NCBI GenBank assembly: GCA_038210415.1
Contig: JBBQWS010000012.1
Coordinates: 1,611-65,610, forward strand
Length of the DNA stretch: 64,000 nt
Reading direction: 5' to 3'
DNA from: Actinomycetes bacterium
Lineage (GTDB): Bacteria > Actinomycetota > Actinomycetes > Prado026
The translations under genes and the position numbers were made by a program. Each line of letters starts with the position of its first letter. Positions within the stretch are counted from its first letter, which is position 1. Shown piece after piece: positions 5,635 to 38,599 of the stretch. Under the pieces are notes generated by a model that saw nothing but the letters and a program-made list of their open reading frames with translations, ran no database searches and had not been told where the DNA came from.

Positions 5635-6306
5635 GTGCCCTTACCCGCCGAACCGTACCGGGCCACCGCCCTCATCGGCGACGTGGTCGCGTCGAAGCAG
5701 GCGCCGGACCGTGGCGCCCTGCAGGACCGTCTGCTGCTGGCCCTGGCCGCAGTGAACTCCGCCGTCCCGTCGCTGCAACCGCTCGAGGCGACGATCGGCG
5801 ACGAGTTCCAGGGCGTGTACGCCTCGGCGAGCCTGGCCCTGCGCGCGAGCGCCCAGGTGCGGCTGCACCTGCTCCCCGTCGACACGAGGTACGGCCTGGG
5901 CACCGGTGAGCTGACCGTCTTCGATGTGGACCGTGCTCCGGTGTCGCAGGACGGCCCGGCCTGGTGGGCCGCTCGCGAGGCCATCGACTACGTACAGGGC
6001 CGACAGGCCCGACGCGGCCATGCGCGTCACCTGCGCACGTGGCTGGTCGACCCGCAGGAGCCCGACGCGGCGACGTACGTCAACGCGTTCCTCCTGAGCC
6101 GCGACGAGACCATCGGCCTGCAGAGCCACCGGGCCCGTCGGTTGCTCCTCGGATCGCTGCTCGGGCGGACCCAGCTCGAGCTCGCCGAGTCGGAGCAGAT
6201 CAGCCAGTCCGCCGTGTCGCAGCAGCTCGCGACCAGTGGGGCCTACGCGATCTGCGACGCTCATACCCTGCTCGAGAGCCTGCCCTCGATCGGAGGCCGT
6301 CCATGA
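5635..6306 (+). CDS. SatD family protein (poorly characterised; C-terminal HTH-like region)
   Basis: 223 aa. The N-terminus ALIGDVVASK ... IGDEFQGVY resembles SatD-family proteins as I remember them. The stop overlaps the start of a DUF3307-like membrane gene (ATGA), which is the usual SatD/SatE pairing. The GTG start has no good RBS. Confidence 0.55.
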   Translation: MPLPAEPYRATALIGDVVASKQAPDRGALQDRLLLALAAVNSAVPSLQPLEATIGDEFQGVYASASLALRASAQVRLHLLPVDTRYGLGTGELTVFDVDRAPVSQDGPAWWAAREAIDYVQGRQARRGHARHLRTWLVDPQEPDAATYVNAFLLSRDETIGLQSHRARRLLLGSLLGRTQLELAESEQISQSAVSQQLATSGAYAICDAHTLLESLPSIGGRP

Positions 6307-28906: not shown

Positions 28907-30325
28907 TCAGCCCACGGCCCCTTCCATCTGCAGCTCGATCAACCGGTTGAGCTCGAGGGCGTACTCCATCGGCAGCTCGCGGGCGATCGGCTCGACAAAG
29001 CCACGGACGATCATCGCCATGGCTTCCTCTTCGCTCATGCCGCGGCTCATCAGGTAGAAGAGCTGCTCGTCGGAGACCTTCGACACCGTGGCCTCGTGCC
29101 CCATCGAGACGTCGTCCTCACGAACGTCGACGTACGGGTACGTGTCGGAGCGGCTGATGTCGTCAACGAGGAGCGCGTCACAGCGGACGGTCGACTTCGA
29201 CCCGTACGCGCCCTCCTGAACCTGGACCAGGCCGCGGTAGGACGTCCGGCCACCGCCTCGGGCGACCGACTTCGACACGATGGTGGACGACGTGTGCGGC
29301 GCGCAGTGGACCATCTTGGCGCCGGCGTCCTGGTGCTGCCCTTCGCCCGCGAAGGCGACGGAGAGCGTCTCGCCCTTGGCGTGCTGGCCGAGCAGGAAGA
29401 CCGCCGGGTACTTCATCGTCACCTTGGAGCCGATGTTGCCGTCGATCCACTCCATGGTCGCGCCCTCTGCCGCAGTCGCCCGCTTGGTGACGAGGTTGTA
29501 GACGTTGTTGGACCAGTTCTGGATGGTCGTGTAGCGGACCCGGGCGTTCTTCTTCACGATGATCTCGACGACCGCCGAGTGAAGGGAGTCGGACGAGTAG
29601 ATCGGCGCCGTGCAGCCCTCGACGTAGTGAACGTAGGAGTCCTCGTCGGCGATGATCAGCGTGCGCTCGAACTGGCCCATGTTCTCGGTGTTGATGCGGA
29701 AGTAGGCCTGCAGAGGGATGTCGACCTTGACCCCCTTGGGCACGTAGATGAACGAGCCGCCCGACCAGACCGAGGTGTTCAGCGCCGCGAACTTGTTGTC
29801 GCCCACCGGGATCACGGTGCCGAAGTACTCGCGGAACAGCGCCTCGTGCTCGCGCAGTCCCGTGTCGGTGTCGACGAAGATGACCCCCTGCTCCTCGAGG
29901 TCCTCGCGGATCTGGTGGTACACGACCTCGGACTCGTACTGAGCCGCGACACCGGAGACGAGCCGCTGCTTCTCGGCCTCGGGGATGCCGAGCCGGTCGT
30001 AGGTGTTCTTGATGTCGTCGGGCAGCTCGTCCCAAGTGGTCGCCTGCTTCTCGGTCGACCGGACGAAGTACTTGATGTTGTCGAAGTGGATGCCGGACAG
30101 GTCGGAGCCCCACGTCGGCATCGGCTTCTTCTCGAACAGACGCAGGCCCTTGAGCCGCATGTCGAGCATCCACTGCGGCTCGCTCTTGAGCCCGGAGATG
30201 TTGCGCACGACGTCCTCGGAAAGTCCGCGTCGAGCGTTGTCGCCGGCTTCGGACTTGTCGTGCCAGCCGTACTCGTAGGTACCGAGACCTTCGAGCGGGT
30301 CGATCTCGGGGGTGGTCTGCGTCAT
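28907..30325 (-). CDS. sufB: Fe-S cluster assembly scaffold SufB
   Basis: [23 protein letters not shown]..., [24 protein letters not shown] 30325 overlaps the sufR stop (ATGA). The upstream Arg-rich part of the track ORF is spurious. Confidence 0.92.
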
Positions 30326-31005
30326 GACGCGGTCCCTTCGGAGGTGGCTGGTACGGCGGGCTGGCGCGGGATGGCCGTGGTGCAGACGTGCGCACCGGCG
30401 GCGATGGTCGCAAGGCGTTGGACGTGCGTGCCGAGCAGGTCGGCGAAGAGCTCGGTCTCGGCCTCGCACAGCTGCGAGAACTCGGCCGCCACGTGGGCCA
30501 CCGGGCAGTGGTGCTGGCACAGCTGGTCGCCGAGCCCCCCGGGACCGGAGGCGATCGAGGCGGCGTAGCCCTCCCCGGTGAGCGCGGCGGCCAGAGCGGC
30601 CGCCCGTTCACCGCGCGGAGCGGCGAGGATCATCGGCTGGTAGCGCTCGCGGATGCGCTCGACCCGGCGGCGGGCGAACGTCTCGACGGCCTCGGCTCCC
30701 CCGACCTCGGCCAGGTAGCGGAGCGCCTGGCTGGCGAGGTCGTCGTAGGCCTGGTGGAACGTATCGCGTCCGAGCACGGTGAGCGCGAACACCCGGGCCG
30801 GACGACCACGGCCCCGGCGCGGGTCGGGTCCGTACGGCGGGCGGTCGCTGCCCTCGACCTGGCCGTCGAGCACAAGAGCGTCAAGGTGGCGGCGTACTGC
30901 AGCGGACGTCAGGCCCATACGGGTCGCCAGCGCGGCGGCAGTGGCCGGGCCTTCGGAGAGCAGTGATCGGACCACGCGCACCCGAGTGCCTCCGTGGTCG
31001 TTCAC
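30322..31005 (-). CDS. sufR: SufR-type transcriptional regulator (winged HTH + Cys-rich Fe-S sensing domain)
   Basis: N-terminal wHTH ([35 protein letters not shown]) and C-terminal Cys motifs ([10 protein letters not shown] ... LCEAE ... HVCT). First gene of the suf operon. GTG 31005 has GGAGG 6 nt upstream; GTG 31026 is the alternative. Confidence 0.8.
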
Positions 31006-31026
31006 CTCGACCTCCGCGATTTTCAC

Positions 31027-31090: not shown

Positions 31091-31963
31091 ATGTCATCAG
31101 CCGGCCACGTGGCCTCCGAGGCCGCCAGGATCGCCGCTACCCCGACGCCGAGGACCCGCGAAGGGCTCGGCGCCGACCTGCGTGCGCTGGGCGTCAGGTC
31201 GGGTGACACGCTGCTGGTGCACTCGTCGCTCACCTCGGTGGGCTGGGTCGTCGGCGGTCAGGTGGCCGTCGTACAGGCCCTGCTCGACGTGCTCGGGCCG
31301 GACGGCACGCTCGTCGTGCCCGCCCATTCCGGCGACAACAGCGACCCCAAGGAATGGGCGAACCCGCCAGTGCCTCAGGACTGGTGGCAGCCGATTCGCG
31401 ACCACATGCCGGCGTTCGACCCCGACCTCACCCCGACCCGCTCGATTGGCGTGATCGCCGAGGCCGTACGCACCTGGCCCGGCGCGACTCGGTCGGATCA
31501 CCCGGTGACCTCGTTCGCCGCCGTCGGCCCGCGGGCCGGCGAGATCACGGCAGTGCACGACCTCGACTGTCAGGCCGGCGAACGCTCTCCACTCGCCGCT
31601 CTGGAGCGACTGGCTGCCCGCGGGCTGTTGCTCGGCGCGGGCTGGGACTCCTGCACGAGCTTCCATCTGGCGGAGTACCGGGTCCCCGGCCTCCCCAGGA
31701 CCGAGCACGGCGCCGCCGTCCGGGTTCGCGCGGAGGACGGTTCGGTCGGCCGGTCCTGGGTCACGTTCAGTGATCTCGCTCTCGACAGCGAGGACTTCGC
31801 GGACCTCGGGACCGCGTTCGAAGATTCGCCGAACAGCGGAGTGACCGTGGGGCAGGTGGGCTCGGCCGACGCCCGGCTGTTCCCGCTCCCGGAAGCCGTC
31901 GCGTTCGCGGAAGCGTGGCTGCGGGCGCACCGGGCCGCAGCCGCGCCCGGCTCGGGTTCCTAG
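31091..31963 (+). CDS. aminoglycoside 3-N-acetyltransferase family protein, AAC(3)
   Basis: 290 aa. TLLVHSSLTSVGWVVGG, GTLVVPAHSGDNSDP, NPPVPQDWW and HPVTSFAAVG are hallmark AAC(3) (Antibiotic_NAT) blocks. Confidence 0.85.
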   Translation: MSSAGHVASEAARIAATPTPRTREGLGADLRALGVRSGDTLLVHSSLTSVGWVVGGQVAVVQALLDVLGPDGTLVVPAHSGDNSDPKEWANPPVPQDWWQPIRDHMPAFDPDLTPTRSIGVIAEAVRTWPGATRSDHPVTSFAAVGPRAGEITAVHDLDCQAGERSPLAALERLAARGLLLGAGWDSCTSFHLAEYRVPGLPRTEHGAAVRVRAEDGSVGRSWVTFSDLALDSEDFADLGTAFEDSPNSGVTVGQVGSADARLFPLPEAVAFAEAWLRAHRAAAAPGSGS

Positions 31964-31973
31964 ACTCCTGCAC

Positions 31974-32909
31974 ATGGAAGCTCCCGCGGTCGAGGTCATC
32001 GACCTCGTCGTCCGGTACGGCCAGAAGACCGCGGTCGCGGGGCTGTCGATGACTGCGCCGCTGGGCGCTGTCACCGCGGTGCTGGGACCGAACGGCGCCG
32101 GCAAGACCACCACGATCGAGGCCTGCGAGGGGTATCGGCGAGCGGCGTCCGGGTTCGTACGGGTGCTGGGCCGCGACCCGCAGGACCGGCACGCGAGCCA
32201 CGCGGCCGACCTGCGCAGCCGGGTCGGGGTGATGCTTCAGGCCGGCGGGGTCGCAGGCGCAGTGCGGGCCGGCGAGATCCTCGCCTACTCCGCGGGCCTG
32301 TACGCCGCCCCGCTCGACCCGGCCGCGCTGGCTGCCCGGCTCGGCATCGAGCACGTGCTCCGCACGCCGTACCGGCGGCTCTCCGGCGGAGAGCAACAAC
32401 GGGTCAAGCTCGCACTCGCCGTCGTCGGCCGCCCGGAGCTCGTGTTCCTCGACGAGCCCACCGCCGGGCTGGACCCGCAGGCGCGACACGCAGCCTGGCA
32501 GCTGGTCCGCGACCTGCGCACCAGCGGCGTCTCGGTCGTCCTCACCACGCACCTGATGGACGAGGCCGAAGAGCTCGCCGACCATGTCGTGATCATCGAC
32601 CGAGGGGTGACGGTCGCCGCCGGTTCGCCAGCCGAGCTCACGGCCCGCGACGCGGAGAACTCACTGCGGTTCCGCGGTCCCGGCGGCCTGGACCTCGCCC
32701 AGCTGCTGCTGGCCCTTCCCGAACGAACCCGGGCCGCCGAGGTCTCACCGGGCTCCTACCGGATCGACGGCCACGTCGACCCGTCTCTGCTCGCCACGGT
32801 GACCGCATGGTGCGCGTCGAACGGCGTGATGCCCGAGGGGCTCGCGGTCGAGCGGCGCAGCCTCGAGGACGTCTTCCTCGCCCTCACCGGAAGGGAGCTG
32901 CGCGCATGA
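31974..32909 (+). CDS. ABC transporter ATP-binding protein (DrrA / ABC-2 type)
   Basis: Walker A GPNGAGKTTT, signature LSGGEQQRVKLA, Walker B LVFLDEPTAGLD. Confidence 0.88.
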   Translation: MEAPAVEVIDLVVRYGQKTAVAGLSMTAPLGAVTAVLGPNGAGKTTTIEACEGYRRAASGFVRVLGRDPQDRHASHAADLRSRVGVMLQAGGVAGAVRAGEILAYSAGLYAAPLDPAALAARLGIEHVLRTPYRRLSGGEQQRVKLALAVVGRPELVFLDEPTAGLDPQARHAAWQLVRDLRTSGVSVVLTTHLMDEAEELADHVVIIDRGVTVAAGSPAELTARDAENSLRFRGPGGLDLAQLLLALPERTRAAEVSPGSYRIDGHVDPSLLATVTAWCASNGVMPEGLAVERRSLEDVFLALTGRELRA

Positions 32910-33673
32910 CCGACCTGGACCTCCGCCCACGACCCGGCGCCGCTCCCGCACGACGGCGGGTGGCACGCCACGCCCGCTTCGAGATCGGCCAGCTGCTTCG
33001 CAACGGCGAGCAGCTGCTGCTGACTCTGGTGATCCCGGTCGTGCTCCTGGTGCTCATGGCCAAGGTCGAGATCGTCGACCTCGGGCCCAGCGGCCGGCTC
33101 CAGTTCCTCGTCCCCGGCATGTTCTGTCTGGCCGTGCTGTCGACCGCATTCACCGGGCAGGCGATCGGCACCGGCTTCGAGCGACGCTACGGCGTGCTCA
33201 AACGGCTCGGCTCCACCCCCCTCACCCGCACCCAGCTGCTCGCCGGCAAATCCCTGGCCGTCCTCGCCGTCGAGCTGGGCCAGGTCGCGCTGCTGGCCGC
33301 GGTGGGGGTCGCTCTGGGCTGGCGGCCCACCGCGCCCGCCTACGGCGTGGCCCTGCTGTTCCTGGTCGTGGGCACGATCGCCTTCGCCGCAGTCGGTCTG
33401 CTGATGGCGGGGACGCTGCGGGCCGAGGTCACCCTCGCCGCGGCCAACCTCGTCTACGTCCTTCTGCTCCTCGGCGGGGGCATCGTGGTGCCGACCTCGA
33501 AGTTCCCAGCCGGGATGGCCAGGGTGCTCGAGTGGCTTCCCTCCAGCGCCCTCGCCACCGGGCTCCGGTCGGCACTCGGCGGGCAGGGCCTGGCCGTCCA
33601 CGCCCTCGTCGTGCTCGGTGTTTGGGCGGCCACCGGCTTCGTGGCAGCTGCCCGGCTCTTTCGCTGGGAGTAG
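32906..33673 (+). CDS. ABC-2 type transporter permease
   Basis: ATG 32906 overlaps the ATPase stop (ATGA). About 6 TM helices, in frame with track ORF 32807..33673. Confidence 0.8.
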   Translation: MTDLDLRPRPGAAPARRRVARHARFEIGQLLRNGEQLLLTLVIPVVLLVLMAKVEIVDLGPSGRLQFLVPGMFCLAVLSTAFTGQAIGTGFERRYGVLKRLGSTPLTRTQLLAGKSLAVLAVELGQVALLAAVGVALGWRPTAPAYGVALLFLVVGTIAFAAVGLLMAGTLRAEVTLAAANLVYVLLLLGGGIVVPTSKFPAGMARVLEWLPSSALATGLRSALGGQGLAVHALVVLGVWAATGFVAAARLFRWE

Positions 33674-33781
33674 CCAAGCAGACCCCGAACACCTGTGCAG
33701 CGTCCAGCTCGGAGCCGCCGGGCACCGGCGAACCCGCGTCACCACCGCGCCTCGGTCGGCGGAACATCGACTGCGCCGAAG

Positions 33782-34007
33782 GGCACGCCTCAAGCCGGCC
33801 CACCACCCGCTCGGCTGGCAGTGCGGCTGCAGCCAGGACGAGTCCCTCGGCGAGAGTGGCCGGCGGAGAAGCTGCGATCGCCGCCTGGCGGGTGACCACC
33901 ACCTCCAGGGCGAGCCCGAGGCGCACTGCCTCCGCGGCGGCCCAGCGCGCTGCAGCGTGCCCGGATTCGCCCCCGTCGACGTCCACAACGATCACCGCGT
34001 CACCCAT
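33782..34007 (-). pseudogene. possible universal stress protein (UspA-like) N-terminal remnant
   Basis: MGDAVIVVDVDGGESGHAAARWAAAEAVRLGLALEVVV resembles the first beta-alpha unit of actinobacterial USPs. Similarity fades after ~70 aa, and the open frame then runs into the convergent permease gene. Confidence 0.25.
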
Positions 34008-34116
34008 GGCGACCGGGTCCTCCGGTCAGCGCGTGCTGCATCCAATCCGGGGTACGAAGCGGAAGAAGAGGAGACGAGCCAATTCCGTCGTCCCACTCGA
34101 GCGAAGGACAGGACAC

Positions 34117-34929
34117 ATGCGCAAGATCCTCGGAGCCGCCGCCATCGCGGCGCTCACCCTCCCCGGAGCACTGCTCCTGACCGCCCCGGCGCAGGCTGCC
34201 GACAACGCCATGGTCTCCGTGCTGCACGGCATTCCTGGTGTCACGGTGGACGTCTACGTGAATGACAAGCTCACGCTCGACAACTTCAAGCCCGGCACCC
34301 TGGCCGGCCCCCTGACCCTGCCGGCCGGAACGTACAACATCAAGATCACCGACCCGGCAGACGCCACCAAGGTCATCATCGGCCCGGCGGCCGTGCCGGT
34401 TTCCGGCGGCATGAACTACACCATCGTCGCGTTCCTCGGCACCGACGGAAAGCCGACCGCGAAGCCGTTCGTGAACGACATCAGCAAGTTGTCGGCAGGC
34501 CAGGGCCGAGTGACCGTCCGCCACGTGGCCAACGCGCCCGCCGTCAAGGTGACCGCCGGTGGGGCCACGCTGATCCCCAGCCTGGCAAACGGCTCCGAGG
34601 CCGTGGCGAACGTCCCGGCGAAGACCTACCCGGTCGCGGTCCTGCCGGCCGCTGGCGGCGCAGCAGTCTTCTCGACGAACCTTCCCGTGACCGAAGGCGC
34701 GAACACGATCGTCTACGCGTACGGCGACCTGGCCGGCGGAACCTTCGCCGCGAAGGTCCAGACGATCACGGGTCTGCACTCGATGCCGAGCGGCGTGCCT
34801 GCCGGTGACGGCGGTCTGGCCGACGACGGCGCCGGGTTCCCGGCCTGGGCGGTAGCTCTCGTGGCGGTCGGACTCCTTGGCACCGGGCTCTCAGCCCGCC
34901 GTCTTGCGACCTCCCGGTCCCAGGGCTGA
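34117..34929 (+). CDS. secreted DUF4397 domain protein with C-terminal sorting-signal-like tail (no LPXTG)
   Basis: ATG 34117 after GAAGGACAGGAC. Signal peptide MRKILGAAAIAALTLPGALLLTAPAQA. Two DUF4397-like repeats (VSVLHGIPGVTVDVYVND..., VTVRHVANAPAVKVTAGG...). Tail is MPSGVPAGDGG..FPAWAVALVAVGLLGTGL-SARRLATSRSQG. Confidence 0.7.
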   Translation: MRKILGAAAIAALTLPGALLLTAPAQAADNAMVSVLHGIPGVTVDVYVNDKLTLDNFKPGTLAGPLTLPAGTYNIKITDPADATKVIIGPAAVPVSGGMNYTIVAFLGTDGKPTAKPFVNDISKLSAGQGRVTVRHVANAPAVKVTAGGATLIPSLANGSEAVANVPAKTYPVAVLPAAGGAAVFSTNLPVTEGANTIVYAYGDLAGGTFAAKVQTITGLHSMPSGVPAGDGGLADDGAGFPAWAVALVAVGLLGTGLSARRLATSRSQG

Positions 34930-34963
34930 CCGTCGCCGACCAAGAAGGCGGACCAGGACGAAC

Positions 34964-35644
34964 ATGTCGCTGAACCGACGCACTGCGGCCGGCGCGGGGC
35001 TCCTCGTGAGCCTCGCGCTGGTCGTCGGCGTTCCCAGCTGCTGGGCGCTGACCCGCCCGGCCGGCGATGTCGGATCGCTGCCGGTGACGGCGCCCTCGAT
35101 CCCGCCCACGCCGGACGCCCCGACCGCAACTCCGTCTCCGCGCGCCACCACCCCGACGGCCACCAGCCCCGCGCCGGCGACCCCCAACCCGCCGCCCGTG
35201 CGGTTCGCAGCTCCCCGACTCGGCGTGACCGCCGCCGTCGACCCGGTGGGGGTCGACTCCCGTGGCGCCGTCGCCATCCCGCCAGACGCCCGACGGGTGG
35301 GCTGGTACCGGTTCGGCCCGGTACCGGGCGACCCGGTCGGATCTGCCGTCCTGGTGGGCCATCGCGACTCTCGTACGCAGGGCAAGGGCGCGTTGTTCCC
35401 GATGGCAGACCTGGTCGTCGGTGACGTCCTGCTGGTCGCGCAGGTCGACGGGAGCGTGTTGAAGTACCGCGTCGTCGAACGCAGGCTGTACCAGAAGGTC
35501 GGACTGCCGGTTCAGATCTTCTTCGCCCGGTCGGGGCCACCCCGGCTCACCGTCATCACCTGCGGCGGACCCTACGACCCCGACAGGGGCGGCTACCAGG
35601 ACAACCTGGTGGTCACGGCCGTACCGTTGGGGTCCAACCCGTGA
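34964..35644 (+). CDS. class F sortase
   Basis: N-terminal TM anchor plus Pro/Thr linker. VLVGHRDS (catalytic His), LTVITCGG (TLxTC Cys motif), and GWY...GPxPG typical of class F. ATG 34964. Confidence 0.8.
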
Positions 35645-36228
35645 ACCGGCTCGAGGAAGGCACGCCCGTGGAAGTGCAGCCTCTCGCGGACGCCGACGTC
35701 GCCCACGGCTTTCGAGAGGGCGATGAGACCTGCCTCGCCGAGGCCTACGCCCGTTGGAGCTCGTTGGTCTTCTCGGTCAGCCTGCGCTCTCTGGGCGACC
35801 GCAGCGATGCCGAAGACGTGACGCAGACTGTCTTCGTCGCCGCCTGGCAAAGTCGCGCCCGGTACGACGCGTCGTCCGGCAACATGGCGGCGTGGCTGCT
35901 CGGCATCACTCGCAACAAAGTCGCCGACCGCTGGGCGGCGAAAGCTCGCGAACGGCGAGCCGTTGCGGCGGTGCTCGAGGTGACGGCGCCGGAGCCGGTC
36001 AGCCCCGCTGCAACCGAGGAGGTCGCAGACCGGGTGCTGCTGGCGGACGAGCTTGCCAGGTTGGGCGAGCCCCAGCATCGGATCATGATGCTGGCGTTCT
36101 ACCAGGACCTCACCCACGCCCAGATCGCAAGCCTGCTGAGCCTCCCGCTCGGCACCGTGAAGAGCCACATCCGCAGATCGTTGGAACGACTTCGTACGCG
36201 ATTGGAGGTGGACGGTGCAGCACTGTGA
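35641..36228 (+). CDS. ECF (sigma-70 family, SigK-like) RNA polymerase sigma factor
   Basis: 195 aa. Region 2 [14 protein letters not shown], region 4 [29 protein letters not shown]. The GTG start overlaps the sortase stop (GTGA). Confidence 0.88.
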
Positions 36229-36976
36229 GCAGGAGACCCTCGCGCTGCTCGCGCTCGGCGAGTCGGCAGCGTCCGCGGAGGACGACCGCCATCTCAGTCG
36301 TTGTGCGCCCTGCCAGTCCGATCTTGCCTCGCTACGCGTGGTCGTGACGACGAGCCGGCAGATCACCCCGGCGGACCGTCCCGTCTCGCCACCGCCTGCC
36401 GTCTGGGACCGGATCATCGGCGAGCTCGGGATAGCACCGGCCCCGGAGGCCCTTTCGGAGCGCGACTCGGAGTCGGAGTCGGAGTCTGAGCCGGTCGTGG
36501 CCGTGGTGGCGCTTGACGGACACCGGCGCACGCGCTGGACGCGGCGCACCGCCCGCCTCACAGCCGCTGCGGCATTCGTTGCGGTGCTCGCCGGGGTCGT
36601 GGGGGCGGGCCTGGTGCGCTCGGGCGGGTCGAGCGACCCCGTGCTCCTCGCTGCGACCGACCTGAAGCCGTTGTCGGTTGCCAATGCCTCAGGCAGCGCG
36701 TCGATACACCGGTCGGACGCAGGCGAGACACTGAGGGTGCAGATCAGTGGACTCCGAAACGTGCCGGATGGTTTCTACGAGGTGTGGCTCGCGGACAAGC
36801 AGACCAAGAAGATGGTGGCCGTCGGCATTCTCGACGCCAACGACCAAGGGTCCTTCGACGTGCCCGGCGGCCTCGACCTGGCGGAGTACCGCGTCGTCGA
36901 CGTGTCGTTGGAGGCGTTCGACGGCAATCCCCTGCACTCCGCGATCAGCGTGGTGCGGGGCGTCTTCCCCGCCTGA
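36215..36976 (+). CDS. anti-sigma-K factor RskA family protein (zinc-finger anti-sigma N-terminus, one TM, extracytoplasmic RskA domain)
   Basis: [12 protein letters not shown] motif, TM helix [21 protein letters not shown]-terminal [21 protein letters not shown]...[12 protein letters not shown] typical of the RskA C-domain. Overlaps the sigma gene by 14 nt. Confidence 0.82.
36464..36490 (+). repeat. hexanucleotide microsatellite (GAGTCG)x4.5 encoding DSESESESE in the anti-sigma cytoplasmic linker
   Basis: gactcg gagtcg gagtcg gagtct gag, read directly. Confidence 0.9.
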
Positions 36977-37001
36977 GCGGCGCCGGAGGCTGACACCTAG
37001 G

Positions 37002-37952
37002 ATGATTCCTGTGACGACCACGGCCGACTCGGACAGGGCTGCTGTAAAGGGCGTGAATGCTCGTACGGCCCACCGCGTCTACGTCGCAGGCGTCGTCGTC
37101 CAGGCGGGCATCGTCGTCACCGGCGGTCTGGTCCGGCTGACGGGATCCGGGCTCGGCTGCCCCACTGTGCCGCAGTGCGTGCCGGGGTCCTACGTCCCGG
37201 TCGAGCGGCAGCCGCAGGGTTACCACAAGCTGATCGAGTTCGGGAACCGCTCGCTCACGTTCGTCGTGGCTGCTGTCATCGTGGCCTGCGTCGTGGTGGC
37301 CTGGCGCAGCGTGCCCCGACGCCCGCCCCTCGTGCTCCTCGCCGCGGTCGGTCTGCTCGGTGTCCTCGGTCAGGCACTCCTCGGCGCCGTTGCCGTGCTC
37401 ACCAAGCTCAGCCCCGGGATCGTCGCAGCGCACTTCCTGCTCTCGTTGCCGCTGATCGCTGCGGCGGTCGCACTCGCGGAGCGGTCGAAGGACGCCGGGG
37501 ACGCCCCCCCGGCCGCCACCGTGGGTCGCGAGGTGAGGCTGCTCTCCCGCGCGTTGCTCGGAGCCGCGCTGGTCGTGATCGCCCTCGGCACCGTCGTGAC
37601 CGGCAGCGGGCCGTACTCCGGCGACAAGGACCAACCCGCGCGGTTCGGTGTCGACGAGGCGAAGGTGTCCTGGCTGCACGCAGACGCGGTGCTGCTCTTC
37701 GTCGGTCTCGTCGTCGCCCTGGTCGTCGCGGTCCGCATGAGTGACGCCCCTCGGGTCGCGGTCCGCCGGGTCTACGTGCTGGTCGCAGTCACGCTGCTGC
37801 AGGCCCTGATCGGCTACACGCAGTACTTCACCGGCCTGCCGTGGGCGCTGGTGTCCGTGCACATGCTCGGAGCCACCCTGCTGTGGATCTCGGTGCTACG
37901 CGTGCAATTCGCACTGCGCCGTCGCGACGCGGCCCCGTCGAGCGCTCAGTAG
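37002..37952 (+). CDS. ctaA: heme A synthase (COX15/CtaA family)
   Basis: ATG 37002 in frame with track ORF 36747..37952. VRLTGSGLGCPTVPQC Cys pair, HKLIEFGNR, multiple TM helices, HF/HM His ligands. Confidence 0.82.
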   Translation: MIPVTTTADSDRAAVKGVNARTAHRVYVAGVVVQAGIVVTGGLVRLTGSGLGCPTVPQCVPGSYVPVERQPQGYHKLIEFGNRSLTFVVAAVIVACVVVAWRSVPRRPPLVLLAAVGLLGVLGQALLGAVAVLTKLSPGIVAAHFLLSLPLIAAAVALAERSKDAGDAPPAATVGREVRLLSRALLGAALVVIALGTVVTGSGPYSGDKDQPARFGVDEAKVSWLHADAVLLFVGLVVALVVAVRMSDAPRVAVRRVYVLVAVTLLQALIGYTQYFTGLPWALVSVHMLGATLLWISVLRVQFALRRRDAAPSSAQ

Positions 37953-38599
37953 TCGCTCGCTCCGGAGTCACTGGTCTCGACGGACTGGGTGGGCACGCCC
38001 TTGACGCAGACGATCTGCACGCCGACCTCGGTGCTCCCGAGGAACTTCACCTCGGCCTGCTGGCCACCGTCGGACTCGATCAGCACGCGGTAGCCCTGGC
38101 TGGGGGAAGCAGAAACGACCCGGACCACGGCGCCCGTGCACTTGGCCAGGATACTTCCGCCGGGTGAGACCAACGAGCGGAAGACGGGGCTGGACCCGCC
38201 GCCGGTGCTCGGTCCCGTGGTTGGGGTCTGCGACGGCTGCTGACTGGGTTCGGTCGACGGGTGGCTGCTGGGCCCGGAGCTCGGTCGAGTGGACGGACGC
38301 GGTCCCTCGGAGCTGTGACCACCGCCAGCCGGTGGCGAACGAGTCGGGTGCACCGACGGGCCGGTCGAGGTGGTCGGGTCGGGCGTGGCGTCGGTGCTGG
38401 GCCCGGCGCTGCCGATGGGGGCAGCGCGGTCCTGGCCGGCGATCTCGCTCTGGCTGAGCGTCACCACGGAGGAGGGCTCACCGACGGCTCCACGGACCAC
38501 CGCCACGGTGCCCATGCCTACGGTGGTGGCCACCGCTGTGACGGTGAGCCACCCGACCACGATGGCGGAGCGAGAGGGCATGACCCCATGCTCGGGCAT
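37946..38599 (-). CDS. hypothetical membrane-anchored protein: TM anchor, ~110-aa Pro/Ser/Thr-rich linker, small C-terminal beta-rich domain with two Cys
   Basis: 217 aa. IVVGWLTVTAVATTVGMGTVAVV anchor, STDATPDPTTSTGPS...PSQTPTTGPSTGG linker, C-terminal ILAKCTGAVVRVVSASPSQGYRVLIESDGGQQAEVKFLGSTEVGVQIVCVKG. No family recognised. Confidence 0.5.
   Translation of the reverse strand: MPEHGVMPSRSAIVVGWLTVTAVATTVGMGTVAVVRGAVGEPSSVVTLSQSEIAGQDRAAPIGSAGPSTDATPDPTTSTGPSVHPTRSPPAGGGHSSEGPRPSTRPSSGPSSHPSTEPSQQPSQTPTTGPSTGGGSSPVFRSLVSPGGSILAKCTGAVVRVVSASPSQGYRVLIESDGGQQAEVKFLGSTEVGVQIVCVKGVPTQSVETSDSGASDY

Follow-up and report, generated by a model that had tools for sequence, protein, structure and literature searches.

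The stretch of DNA analysed here, referred to as the window, is a 64,000-nucleotide (nt) part of contig JBBQWS010000012.1 from an Actinomycetes bacterium (GCA_038210415.1), and coordinates are positions in it unless a locus number is given. Our subject is a set of four adjacent genes, which encode an exported protein of the DUF4397 family, a sortase, a sigma factor of the extracytoplasmic function (ECF) type and an RskA-type anti-sigma factor, together with the promoter before them and the C-terminal tail of the exported protein. The G+C fraction around the locus is ~0.69-0.73, as in high-GC actinobacterial DNA. The promoter and genes, the latter taken from the open reading frame (ORF) list, are as follows.

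34037-34066, + strand: putative ECF (SigK-type) promoter, with -35 element TGCATCC at 34037-34043, a 17-nt spacer and -10 element GGAAGA at 34061-34066
34117-34929, + strand: DUF4397 protein, 270 amino acids
34964-35644, + strand: sortase, 226 amino acids
35641-36228, + strand: ECF sigma factor, 195 amino acids, GTG start
36215-36976, + strand: RskA-type anti-sigma factor, 253 amino acids, GTG start

The genes are closely packed, with a gap of 34 nt between the DUF4397 and sortase genes, an overlap of 4 nt (GTGA) between the sortase and sigma genes and an overlap of 14 nt between the sigma and anti-sigma genes. These co-directional genes and their junctions, as described in a first-pass annotation of the window, are borne out both by the ORF list and by independent gene calls on a public contig (L081) that encodes an identical DUF4397 protein, where the boundaries of all four genes are the same. 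The comparative data indicate that the arrangement is more than chance. A database search gave 706 homologues of the DUF4397 protein, with lengths that are almost always about 265-290 amino acids, and a scan of one genome per species placed relatives of the protein in at least 582 species genomes. The 80 best loci (L numbers below), from at least five actinobacterial orders, were searched with the window proteins by tblastn. They belong to the Microbacteriaceae (Cryobacterium, Agromyces, Microbacterium, Herbiconiux and others), to Cellulomonas (Cellulomonadaceae), Actinotalea, Sanguibacter, Cellulosimicrobium, Georgenia, Brachybacterium, Citricoccus, Geodermatophilus, Kribbella and Marmoricola, and to metagenome-assembled genomes (MAGs) of Jiangellales and Nanopelagicales.

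Of the 76 loci that leave room for it (900 nt or more), 75 have the sortase gene immediately after the DUF4397 gene; of the 72 that leave room for the whole cassette (2.6 kb or more), 63 have all four genes in the same order and on the same strand. Clustering of the flanking ORFs in the 80 loci revealed no fifth conserved gene, and the flanks are otherwise unrelated. Because the order is kept across loci while the flanks differ, the four genes behave as a unit that is kept together while moving between genomic contexts. The co-occurrence of DUF4397, sortase, ECF sigma and RskA genes proposed at first pass is therefore seen in several orders and beside unrelated flanks. Eight loci contain the DUF4397-sortase pair without adjacent regulators (L014, L024, L041, L065, L069, L070, L075 and L015), and in L015 the sigma and anti-sigma genes are divergent and lie upstream of the pair. 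The single exception to the adjacency of the DUF4397 and sortase genes is a decayed copy of the cassette in Cryobacterium shii (L008, 7734-8774, + strand). This copy lacks genes for the sortase and the sigma factor, and its RskA C-terminal domain is joined to a repetitive N-terminal part of unrelated sequence, but the tail and promoter of the DUF4397 gene are still there.

The DUF4397 protein and its C-terminal tail

The exported protein begins with a Sec signal peptide (residues 1-27, AQA/AD) and matches PF14344 over residues 31-146 (Pfam, 6e-27, 94.9 bits against a cutoff of 30.6). Its AlphaFold2 model (predicted local distance difference test score, pLDDT, 78) consists of the signal peptide, two beta-sandwich lobes (31-119 and 129-217), a disordered segment at ~218-242 and a helix at 243-268. 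The earlier description of DUF4397-like repeats stands for the first lobe, which passes the Pfam cutoff, whereas the second (129-217) fails it and is known from the model and from a weak in-register self-match (E 0.10). A sequence search of the PDB gave no meaningful match to the protein. Among known folds, the model is closest to the PepT1/PepT2 extracellular domains and to AlgF domains, and it suggests a non-enzymatic protein with binding-type, immunoglobulin-like (Ig-like) lobes. The parts of the tail that follow the lobes are these.

34771-34821, + strand: tail motif, G219-A235, GLHSMPSGVPAGDGGLA (219-235)
between GLHSMPSGVPAGDGGLA and FPAWAVALVAVGLLGTGL: tail linker, DDGAG
34837-34926 (together with the basic tail), + strand: hydrophobic helix, F241-L258, FPAWAVALVAVGLLGTGL
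within 34837-34926, + strand: basic tail, S259-G270, with three Arg, SARRLATSRSQG
candidate substrate peptide stretches of the same tail: HSMPSGVPAGDGGLADD and TGLHSMPSGVPAGDGGLADD

All 80 DUF4397 proteins of the locus set end in G-L-H-S-x-P-x-G-V-P-A-G-E-A-G-L-A, followed by an uncharged stretch of ~23 residues and a tail of Arg and Lys, and the same ending is present in 119 of the 120 homologues listed out of the 706, the exception being a protein of 427 amino acids (P0046). The logo of 188 non-redundant tails reads G-[LM]-H-S-x-P-x-[GS]-[VI]-[P/N/H/Q/D]-[A/S/T/G]-G-[E/S/Q]-x-G-L-[AV], and in an unbiased full-length alignment of DUF4397 proteins (A1) P224 and G230 are invariant. The median geometry of these 188 tails, in which the motif Gly is followed by a spacer of 9 residues, 23 uncharged residues and 9 residues with 4 Arg/Lys, is the tripartite one of a C-terminal sorting signal, with a motif, about 20 hydrophobic residues and a short basic tail. 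The pLDDT is below 50 at residues 225-242, yet the motif is among the best-conserved parts of the protein. Since it is highly conserved and nevertheless placed in a juxtamembrane linker that the model renders as disordered, the 17-residue motif looks like a recognition peptide. A conserved motif of the form [MV]P[SA]G had been anticipated; a motif is indeed present in 188 of 189 non-redundant orthologue tails, but it is longer than foreseen, and the signal shared with a second protein family (below) is PxxVx[AST]GxxG[LV]A.

Cryobacterium glucosi provides a natural control without a tail, a tandem DUF4397 paralogue (L007, 5881-6729, + strand) with His-rich ends (GGHGHG..., ...EKGHRH) that stops exactly where the sorting motif would begin. 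The paralogue is presumably secreted, and because it lacks the tail, the DUF4397 fold can be considered independent of it.

The specificity of the tail was assessed in two ways. A six-frame search of 1.1 Mb (the loci and the window) for the stringent motif followed by an uncharged, transmembrane-like stretch and a basic end returned the DUF4397 genes and one other ORF, in L068, which is probably spurious. A profile of the tail only (53 positions), searched against 1.84 billion (1.84e9) representative proteins at E<=1e-3, matched 86 proteins, none longer than 294 amino acids, and all of them were DUF4397 proteins or fragments except one, P0319, which is a fasciclin (FAS1, MPT83-like) domain protein carrying the tail. 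An ending of this type, P-x-x-V-x-[AST]-G-[NDE]-x-G-[LV]-A-A followed by an uncharged stretch and RxRR, is present in seven fasciclin proteins. The core common to the DUF4397 and fasciclin tails is PxxVx[AST]GxxG[LV]A, 12 residues that correspond to P224-A235 in the window protein, while the GLHS prefix and the second Pro are features of the DUF4397 tails.

The gene that follows a tailed fasciclin gene encodes a sortase in all six contigs that run past the stop codon (L082, L083 and L085-L088). Where the contig suffices, these sortases have the hallmarks GW[YF], GHVD, LFRxxG, TLITCGG and YRDN and resemble the window enzyme, which is matched by five of the six at E values of 3e-7 to 8e-29; the contig of the sixth (L086) ends just inside the catalytic domain, after the membrane anchor and linker. 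In L083 the fasciclin-sortase pair occurs without regulators. The tail and the sortase clade therefore travel together on two unrelated passenger domains, and it is on this basis that we read the tail as the signal of the sortase. Judged from sequence, this co-inheritance is the strongest available argument for that reading. The fasciclin gene of L083 (6798-7504, + strand) is apparently split by a frameshift, the signal-peptide part being read in a different frame ahead of the called start, and it overlaps a predicted P450 gene; a miscall or an assembly error may account for this.

The pilin signals of Streptococcus pyogenes read EVPTG or QVPTG, and a minority of DUF4397 tails read G-V-P-T-G (most read G-V-P-A-G), which resembles V-P-T-G with cleavage before the Gly. 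Because the second Pro is often missing in both tail families (it is absent from about one quarter of the DUF4397 tails and from six of the seven fasciclin tails), the resemblance is probably superficial, and an EVPTG-like reading of G-V-P-[AST]-G was down-weighted.

The sortase, the regulators and the promoter

The second gene product matches PF04203 over residues 84-220 (Pfam, 1e-13, 51.4 bits against a cutoff of 26.6). In its AlphaFold2 model (pLDDT 86), an N-terminal membrane helix (5-30) is followed by a linker rich in Pro, Thr and Ala (31-77) and by a catalytic domain (78-221) with the eight-stranded beta-barrel of sortases, for which Foldseek gave 107 PDB matches at E<=1e-3. The best 50 of the 107 are all sortases, led by classes C, E and A, with target-normalised TM-scores of ~0.5-0.74, and the top single match is the class C enzyme 2xwg at 27% identity. 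Searched by sequence against the PDB, the enzyme gave no single-sequence match, and the profile alignments end at the catalytic Cys. No class F structure is among the best 50 fold matches, and the literature states that there is none (PMC11231552). The two catalytic residues are as follows.

35360-35362, + strand: catalytic His133 (VGHRD), invariant in 76 orthologues
35561-35563, + strand: catalytic Cys200 (ITCGG), invariant in 76 orthologues

Conservation continues on both sides of the Cys. After it, Y211 (75 of 76), [DS]213 and N214 (73 of 76) lie in a strand of the form Y-x-[DS]-N-[VLI]-[VI]-V, and before it are K178 (71 of 76, 93%) and R189 (70 of 76, 92%). By hand alignment, N214 would stand opposite R197 of Staphylococcus aureus SrtA. 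Position 212 (Q/R/L/A) was considered as an equivalent of the catalytic Arg and rejected as variable.

The class F model NF033748 gave the only substantial NCBIfam match, no other family being close, and by its sequence the enzyme would be best placed as class-F-like, in a sub-threshold sister branch of class F, the nearest family. The assignment to class F made at first pass is accordingly retained in part: class F is the nearest curated family and the catalytic His and Cys are kept, but the score lies below the NF033748 cutoff.

The sigma factor is composed of regions 2 and 4 only (Sigma70_r2, PF04542, and r4_2, PF08281, both above the Pfam cutoff) and scores 72.7 bits on TIGR02937 against a cutoff of 42.9. 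Its best NCBIfam models, PRK12519 (129 bits) and the SigK model PRK09646 (109.5 bits, cutoff 226), are both below cutoff, and among PDB sequences it is equidistant from RpoE (2q1z, 71 bits), SigL (69) and SigK (4nqw, 65). It has a single Cys (C31) and so lacks the SigK redox pair, a Cys pair typical of ECF18/19 sigma factors (PMC7509140). The anti-sigma factor matches PF10099, RskA_C, over residues 116-239 (5e-13, 50 bits against a cutoff of 29.4) and NF052375 in NCBIfam (55 bits), and gave no PDB match in a sequence search. It has a cytoplasmic HxxxCxxC motif (H26, C30, C33), an acidic Ser/Glu linker, one transmembrane segment at ~115-135 and an extracytoplasmic RskA_C domain.

Alignment of the 130 nt upstream of the DUF4397 gene in 81 sequences revealed a consensus, TGCATCC-N17-GGAAGT, 45-60 nt before the start codon. 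The second hexamer is matched at four or more of six bases in 65 of the 81 sequences, and the spacer is 17 nt in 60 of those 65. The element of the window ends 50 nt before the ATG at 34117; the pattern GCATCC-N16-18-GRAAG has this one match in the 64-kb window against 0.12 expected, and at least one match occurred in 11 of 100 shuffles. Scored with a position weight matrix (PWM), the window promoter reaches 31.4, and of 75 sites of at least 14 bits on both strands of 1.04 Mb of loci, 67 lie less than 200 nt upstream of the DUF4397 gene. The ECF-type promoter expected before 34117 is therefore present, and kept at the same place in about 67 loci. No sigma-70 promoter was found in 33400-38200.

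The eight other strong sites precede the tail-less paralogue of L007 (one, at 5928), fasciclin genes (three) and a gene in L050 (one), or are found inside sigma genes (three). The three fasciclin genes (PF02469, 4e-17) are divergent from the cassette and have the promoter motif on the opposite strand.

L010, 6212-6802, - strand: tail-less divergent fasciclin (MPT83-like) gene with its own promoter motif
L025, 6101-6691, - strand: tail-less divergent fasciclin (MPT83-like) gene with its own promoter motif
L015, 6179-6796, - strand: tail-less divergent fasciclin (MPT83-like) gene with its own promoter motif

The L015 gene is the first of a divergent unit of three, with sigma and anti-sigma genes after it; the unit stands back to back with the DUF4397-sortase pair and is the published mpt83-sigK-rskA minimal cassette (PMC7509140). 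The SigK-binding site has been reported to be conserved across Actinobacteria (PMC7509140). A related element, TTGCATCC-N17-CGAAGG, precedes the fasciclin-sortase pair of L082, and the loci without adjacent regulators keep elements resembling CATCC-N17-GAAC; the window itself contains no fasciclin gene. Because the same promoter motif precedes fasciclin genes, we tie the module to the SigK/RskA regulon, and its sigma factor would, on this evidence from sequence, belong functionally to the SigK/RskA circle. Of the SigK/RskA pair named at first pass, the RskA_C domain is above cutoff and the promoter is shared with fasciclin genes, but the SigK cutoff is missed and the redox Cys pair is absent.

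Two further observations concern the same motif. In Microbacterium awajiense (L050, ~5781, - strand) a site seen once precedes a gene resembling Zn-dependent quinone oxidoreductases, which is a possible extra member of the regulon. In three related MAGs (L003 at 8898, L004 at 8922 and L005 at 3435, + strand) TGCATCC-N17-GAAGAG lies inside the sigma gene, from where it may drive the anti-sigma gene as an internal promoter; no intragenic site of this kind reaches 14 bits in the window.

Proposed mechanism and rival explanations

We consider it probable that the four genes form an autoregulated envelope module of the SigK/RskA type, a sigma-driven operon in which a class-F-like sortase anchors the DUF4397 protein by means of a tail that is not of the LPXTG kind. 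According to this model, the membrane-bound anti-sigma factor would release the ECF sigma factor, RNA polymerase would start at TGCATCC-N17-GGAAGA (34037-66), and the four genes would be read as one transcript. Sec would export the DUF4397 protein, whose C-terminal helix and basic tail would then keep it in the membrane. The membrane-anchored, class-F-like cysteine transpeptidase would recognise the disordered motif PxxVx[AST]GxxG[LV]A and probably cleave the tail, most likely before the invariant Gly that follows the small residue, and the two-lobed beta-sandwich protein would be transferred to the cell wall. We infer that the sigma factor uses this promoter, that the sortase acts on the tail, that it cuts at the site given and that the acceptor is peptidoglycan or lipid II. 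Our confidence is high for the operon and its regulation and good for the pairing of sortase and DUF4397 protein as enzyme and substrate. It is moderate for the predicted covalent anchoring to the wall and for the exact scissile bond.

Several observations weigh against this model. Neither LPXTG nor LAXTG is present in the DUF4397 tail, as had been noted at first pass for its three-part end, and no LPXTG-like tail occurs elsewhere in the 64-kb window; the only characterised class F enzyme, from Propionibacterium (Cutibacterium) acnes, uses LPXTG (PMC8225981), and neither the adjacent protein nor the window offers such a substrate. No Pfam or NCBIfam model of curated sorting signals matches the tails even at E<=10. 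On NF033748, whose cutoff is 166 bits, the window sortase reaches 113 bits with an alignment that spans positions 5-152 of 155, and ten members of the clade score 117-140 bits over nearly the full model. The 76 orthologues have no conserved Arg anywhere from C200 to the C-terminus, and without a conserved Arg after the catalytic Cys the chemistry could differ from classical transpeptidation. An Actinoplanes mutant lacking all four of its class F sortases showed no phenotype (PMC13251363). As to the samples, the 80 loci are those of the top-scoring relatives, non-random and phylogenetically non-independent, the fasciclin replicates are mostly contigs of ~1 kb, with one scaffold gap and one probable frameshift, and the PWM was built from 60 sites that it then scores, so that only sites elsewhere act as a control.

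Some of these points would be accommodated if the hydrophobic helix were a permanent type I membrane anchor, with the motif serving docking, glycosylation or as a hinge and the sortase acting on unlinked LPXTG or LAXTG proteins. Such an arrangement would fit a tail that has no LPXTG and no match among the curated sorting-signal models, and a sortase clade without the canonical Arg. We nevertheless consider it improbable, as it leaves unexplained why the same tail core is found on fasciclin proteins beside the same sortase clade (six of six contigs), why the DUF4397 and sortase genes are adjacent in 75 of 76 loci, and why there is a tail-less paralogue in L007, from which it is seen that the fold can do without a tail. 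Slightly less probable again is that the enzyme is a release protease, which would cut the tail and hydrolyse the acyl-enzyme, shedding the protein to the medium or the wall matrix with no covalent attachment. The conserved Y-x-[DS]-N in place of the canonical Arg would suit such an enzyme, and the fasciclins of the mycobacterial SigK regulon include the secreted MPT70 (PMC7509140). Secretion, however, would need no more than a signal peptide, and the paralogue of L007 and the fasciclins of L010 and L025 indeed have no tail. Moreover, all characterised sortases are, to our knowledge, transpeptidases. The fold match to class C 2xwg and the two Ig-like lobes of the substrate would also be expected of pilus-type polymerisation, in which the sortase would link DUF4397 subunits head-to-tail in the manner of class C. 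We rejected this explanation as highly implausible, since the DUF4397 alignment has no invariant Lys and therefore no candidate for the pilin-motif nucleophile; the sortase has no lid segment, and the cassette has no second pilin or sortase gene.

A role in signalling is not exclusive of the anchoring model. The sortase and the DUF4397 protein might help to control RskA and so couple SigK activity to the state of wall anchoring, either because the DUF4397 protein, anchored or unprocessed, binds RskA_C or because the sortase makes the first extracytoplasmic cut in RskA. In favour of this, the cassette has been inherited whole in 63 of 72 loci and has no further conserved gene beside it, the two-lobed fold is of a non-enzymatic, binding type, and the extracytoplasmic site-1 protease for RskA has been stated to be unknown (PMC7509140). 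Set against this, the DUF4397-sortase pair occurs without adjacent sigma and anti-sigma genes in eight loci (divergent regulators in L015 included), the fasciclin-sortase pair of L083 is also without regulators, the tail motif is not present in RskA proteins, and the ordinary logic of ECF systems, in which the upstream output genes are autoregulated, suffices to account for the arrangement. We therefore regard a signalling role as unlikely, although of the rival explanations it is the one to which we give most weight. A broader proposal, to which we would give a shade less weight, is that PxxVx[AST]GxxG[LV]A is the native signal of the whole Arg-less, class-F-like branch and that anchoring is wired into SigK/RskA signalling. 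If this were true, the sortase or its anchored product would act on the RskA ectodomain, possibly as the missing site-1 step, and the cell would sense its wall-anchoring capacity through the cassette.

Returning to the anchoring model, a dedicated sortase with a single adjacent substrate is known from the class B pair SrtB-IsdC (NPQTN, iron-regulated isd locus) and from the class GN 'marine' systems. There too, a specialised sortase stands beside its own substrate, which carries a variant motif, a hydrophobic segment and a basic tail, and the pair is under a specific environmental regulator. The system of the window differs in its 12-residue motif, which has no LPXTG-like pentapeptide in register, in having an ECF sigma factor in the same operon as regulator, and in its class-F-like, actinobacterial enzyme. 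The dedicated-sortase logic and the SigK/RskA regulatory pair are therefore already known.

The closest regulatory parallel is the mpt83-sigK-rskA minimal cassette and the mycobacterial SigK regulon (Veyrier et al. 2008, as described in PMC7509140). In both, an ECF sigma gene is followed by an overlapping RskA-type anti-sigma gene, the unit is autoregulated with a promoter before an upstream gene for an exported protein, and the MPT83-like fasciclin genes of the relatives carry the same promoter motif. The window differs in encoding a DUF4397 beta-sandwich as exported protein where the cassette has a fasciclin, in having an inserted sortase gene, and in that a sortase signal, not a lipobox, would serve for anchoring; the sigma factor is without the two redox Cys and below the SigK cutoff, and the anti-sigma factor has HxxxCxxC. 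The class F enzyme of P. acnes (Di Girolamo et al. 2019, cited in PMC8225981 and PMC13251363) likewise comes from the nearest curated family and is actinobacterial and membrane-anchored; it is a housekeeping enzyme for LPXTG, whereas the clade of the window is below the cutoff and stands beside one substrate gene without LPXTG. The class E sortases and LAXTG chaplins of Streptomyces (PMC8225981) are similar in being actinobacterial and non-LPXTG and in handling developmentally or stress-regulated surface proteins, and are unlike the window system in motif, sortase class and genetic organisation, the class E substrates being scattered in the genome.

We found no published description of the cassette or the motif in the searchable literature. 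Judged against that literature and the curated libraries, what is new is the motif, its pairing with an Arg-less class-F-like clade and the insertion of the pair into a SigK/RskA cassette. Many soil actinomycetes have more sortases of class F than of any other class, and published work explicitly treats what these enzymes do in the cell, and which proteins they naturally act on, as unknown (PMC13251363, 2026; PMC11231552, 2024). The cassette provides the class-F-like clade with a first candidate natural substrate and a defined, assay-ready peptide motif, and names the regulator expected to switch the system on. SigK is known from the tuberculosis antigens MPT70 and MPT83, and the present data suggest that the exported proteins of the SigK regulon, whether fasciclin or DUF4397, are fitted according to lineage with a lipid anchor, no anchor or a sortase tail. 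For orthogonal protein ligation, too, there would be practical interest in a sortase that recognised a 12-residue, non-LPXTG sequence and lacked the canonical Arg.

Flanking genes

The genes next to the cassette, identified with Pfam, are these.

31974-32909: ATP-binding cassette (ABC) transporter ATPase
32906-33673: ABC-2 permease
37002-37952: CtaA

The first-pass view that the cassette interrupts an otherwise conserved ABC-2/ctaA neighbourhood is addressed in part by the loci. The placement of the cassette between ABC/ABC-2 and ctaA genes recurs only in the eight loci closest to the window, with full flanks in L002, L003, L005, L006, L009, L023 and L071 and, in L004, to the contig end; L040 has only ctaA in common with the window. 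The ctaA start lies 25 nt after the anti-sigma stop and a scan of 33400-38200 found no + strand terminator after the anti-sigma gene, so transcriptional read-through from the cassette into ctaA is possible. Convergent with ctaA, 37946-38599 (- strand) encodes a 217-amino-acid protein rich in Pro, Ser and Thr, with an N-terminal hydrophobic segment and no match in Pfam or NCBIfam.

The spacer of 443 nt between the ABC-2 permease and DUF4397 genes holds the start of a minus-strand ORF (33675-34007) with a weak match to the N-terminus of universal stress proteins (Pfam Usp, E 0.009). It looks like a gene remnant, because this spacer is much shorter in the closest relatives. Further upstream, a gene for an AAC(3)-type aminoglycoside N-acetyltransferase (31091-31963, + strand, PF02522, 4e-87) sits between a SufR-like helix-turn-helix regulator gene (30322-31026, - strand) and the ABC transporter; the SufR-like regulator and ABC genes are also present in the loci of the closest relatives.

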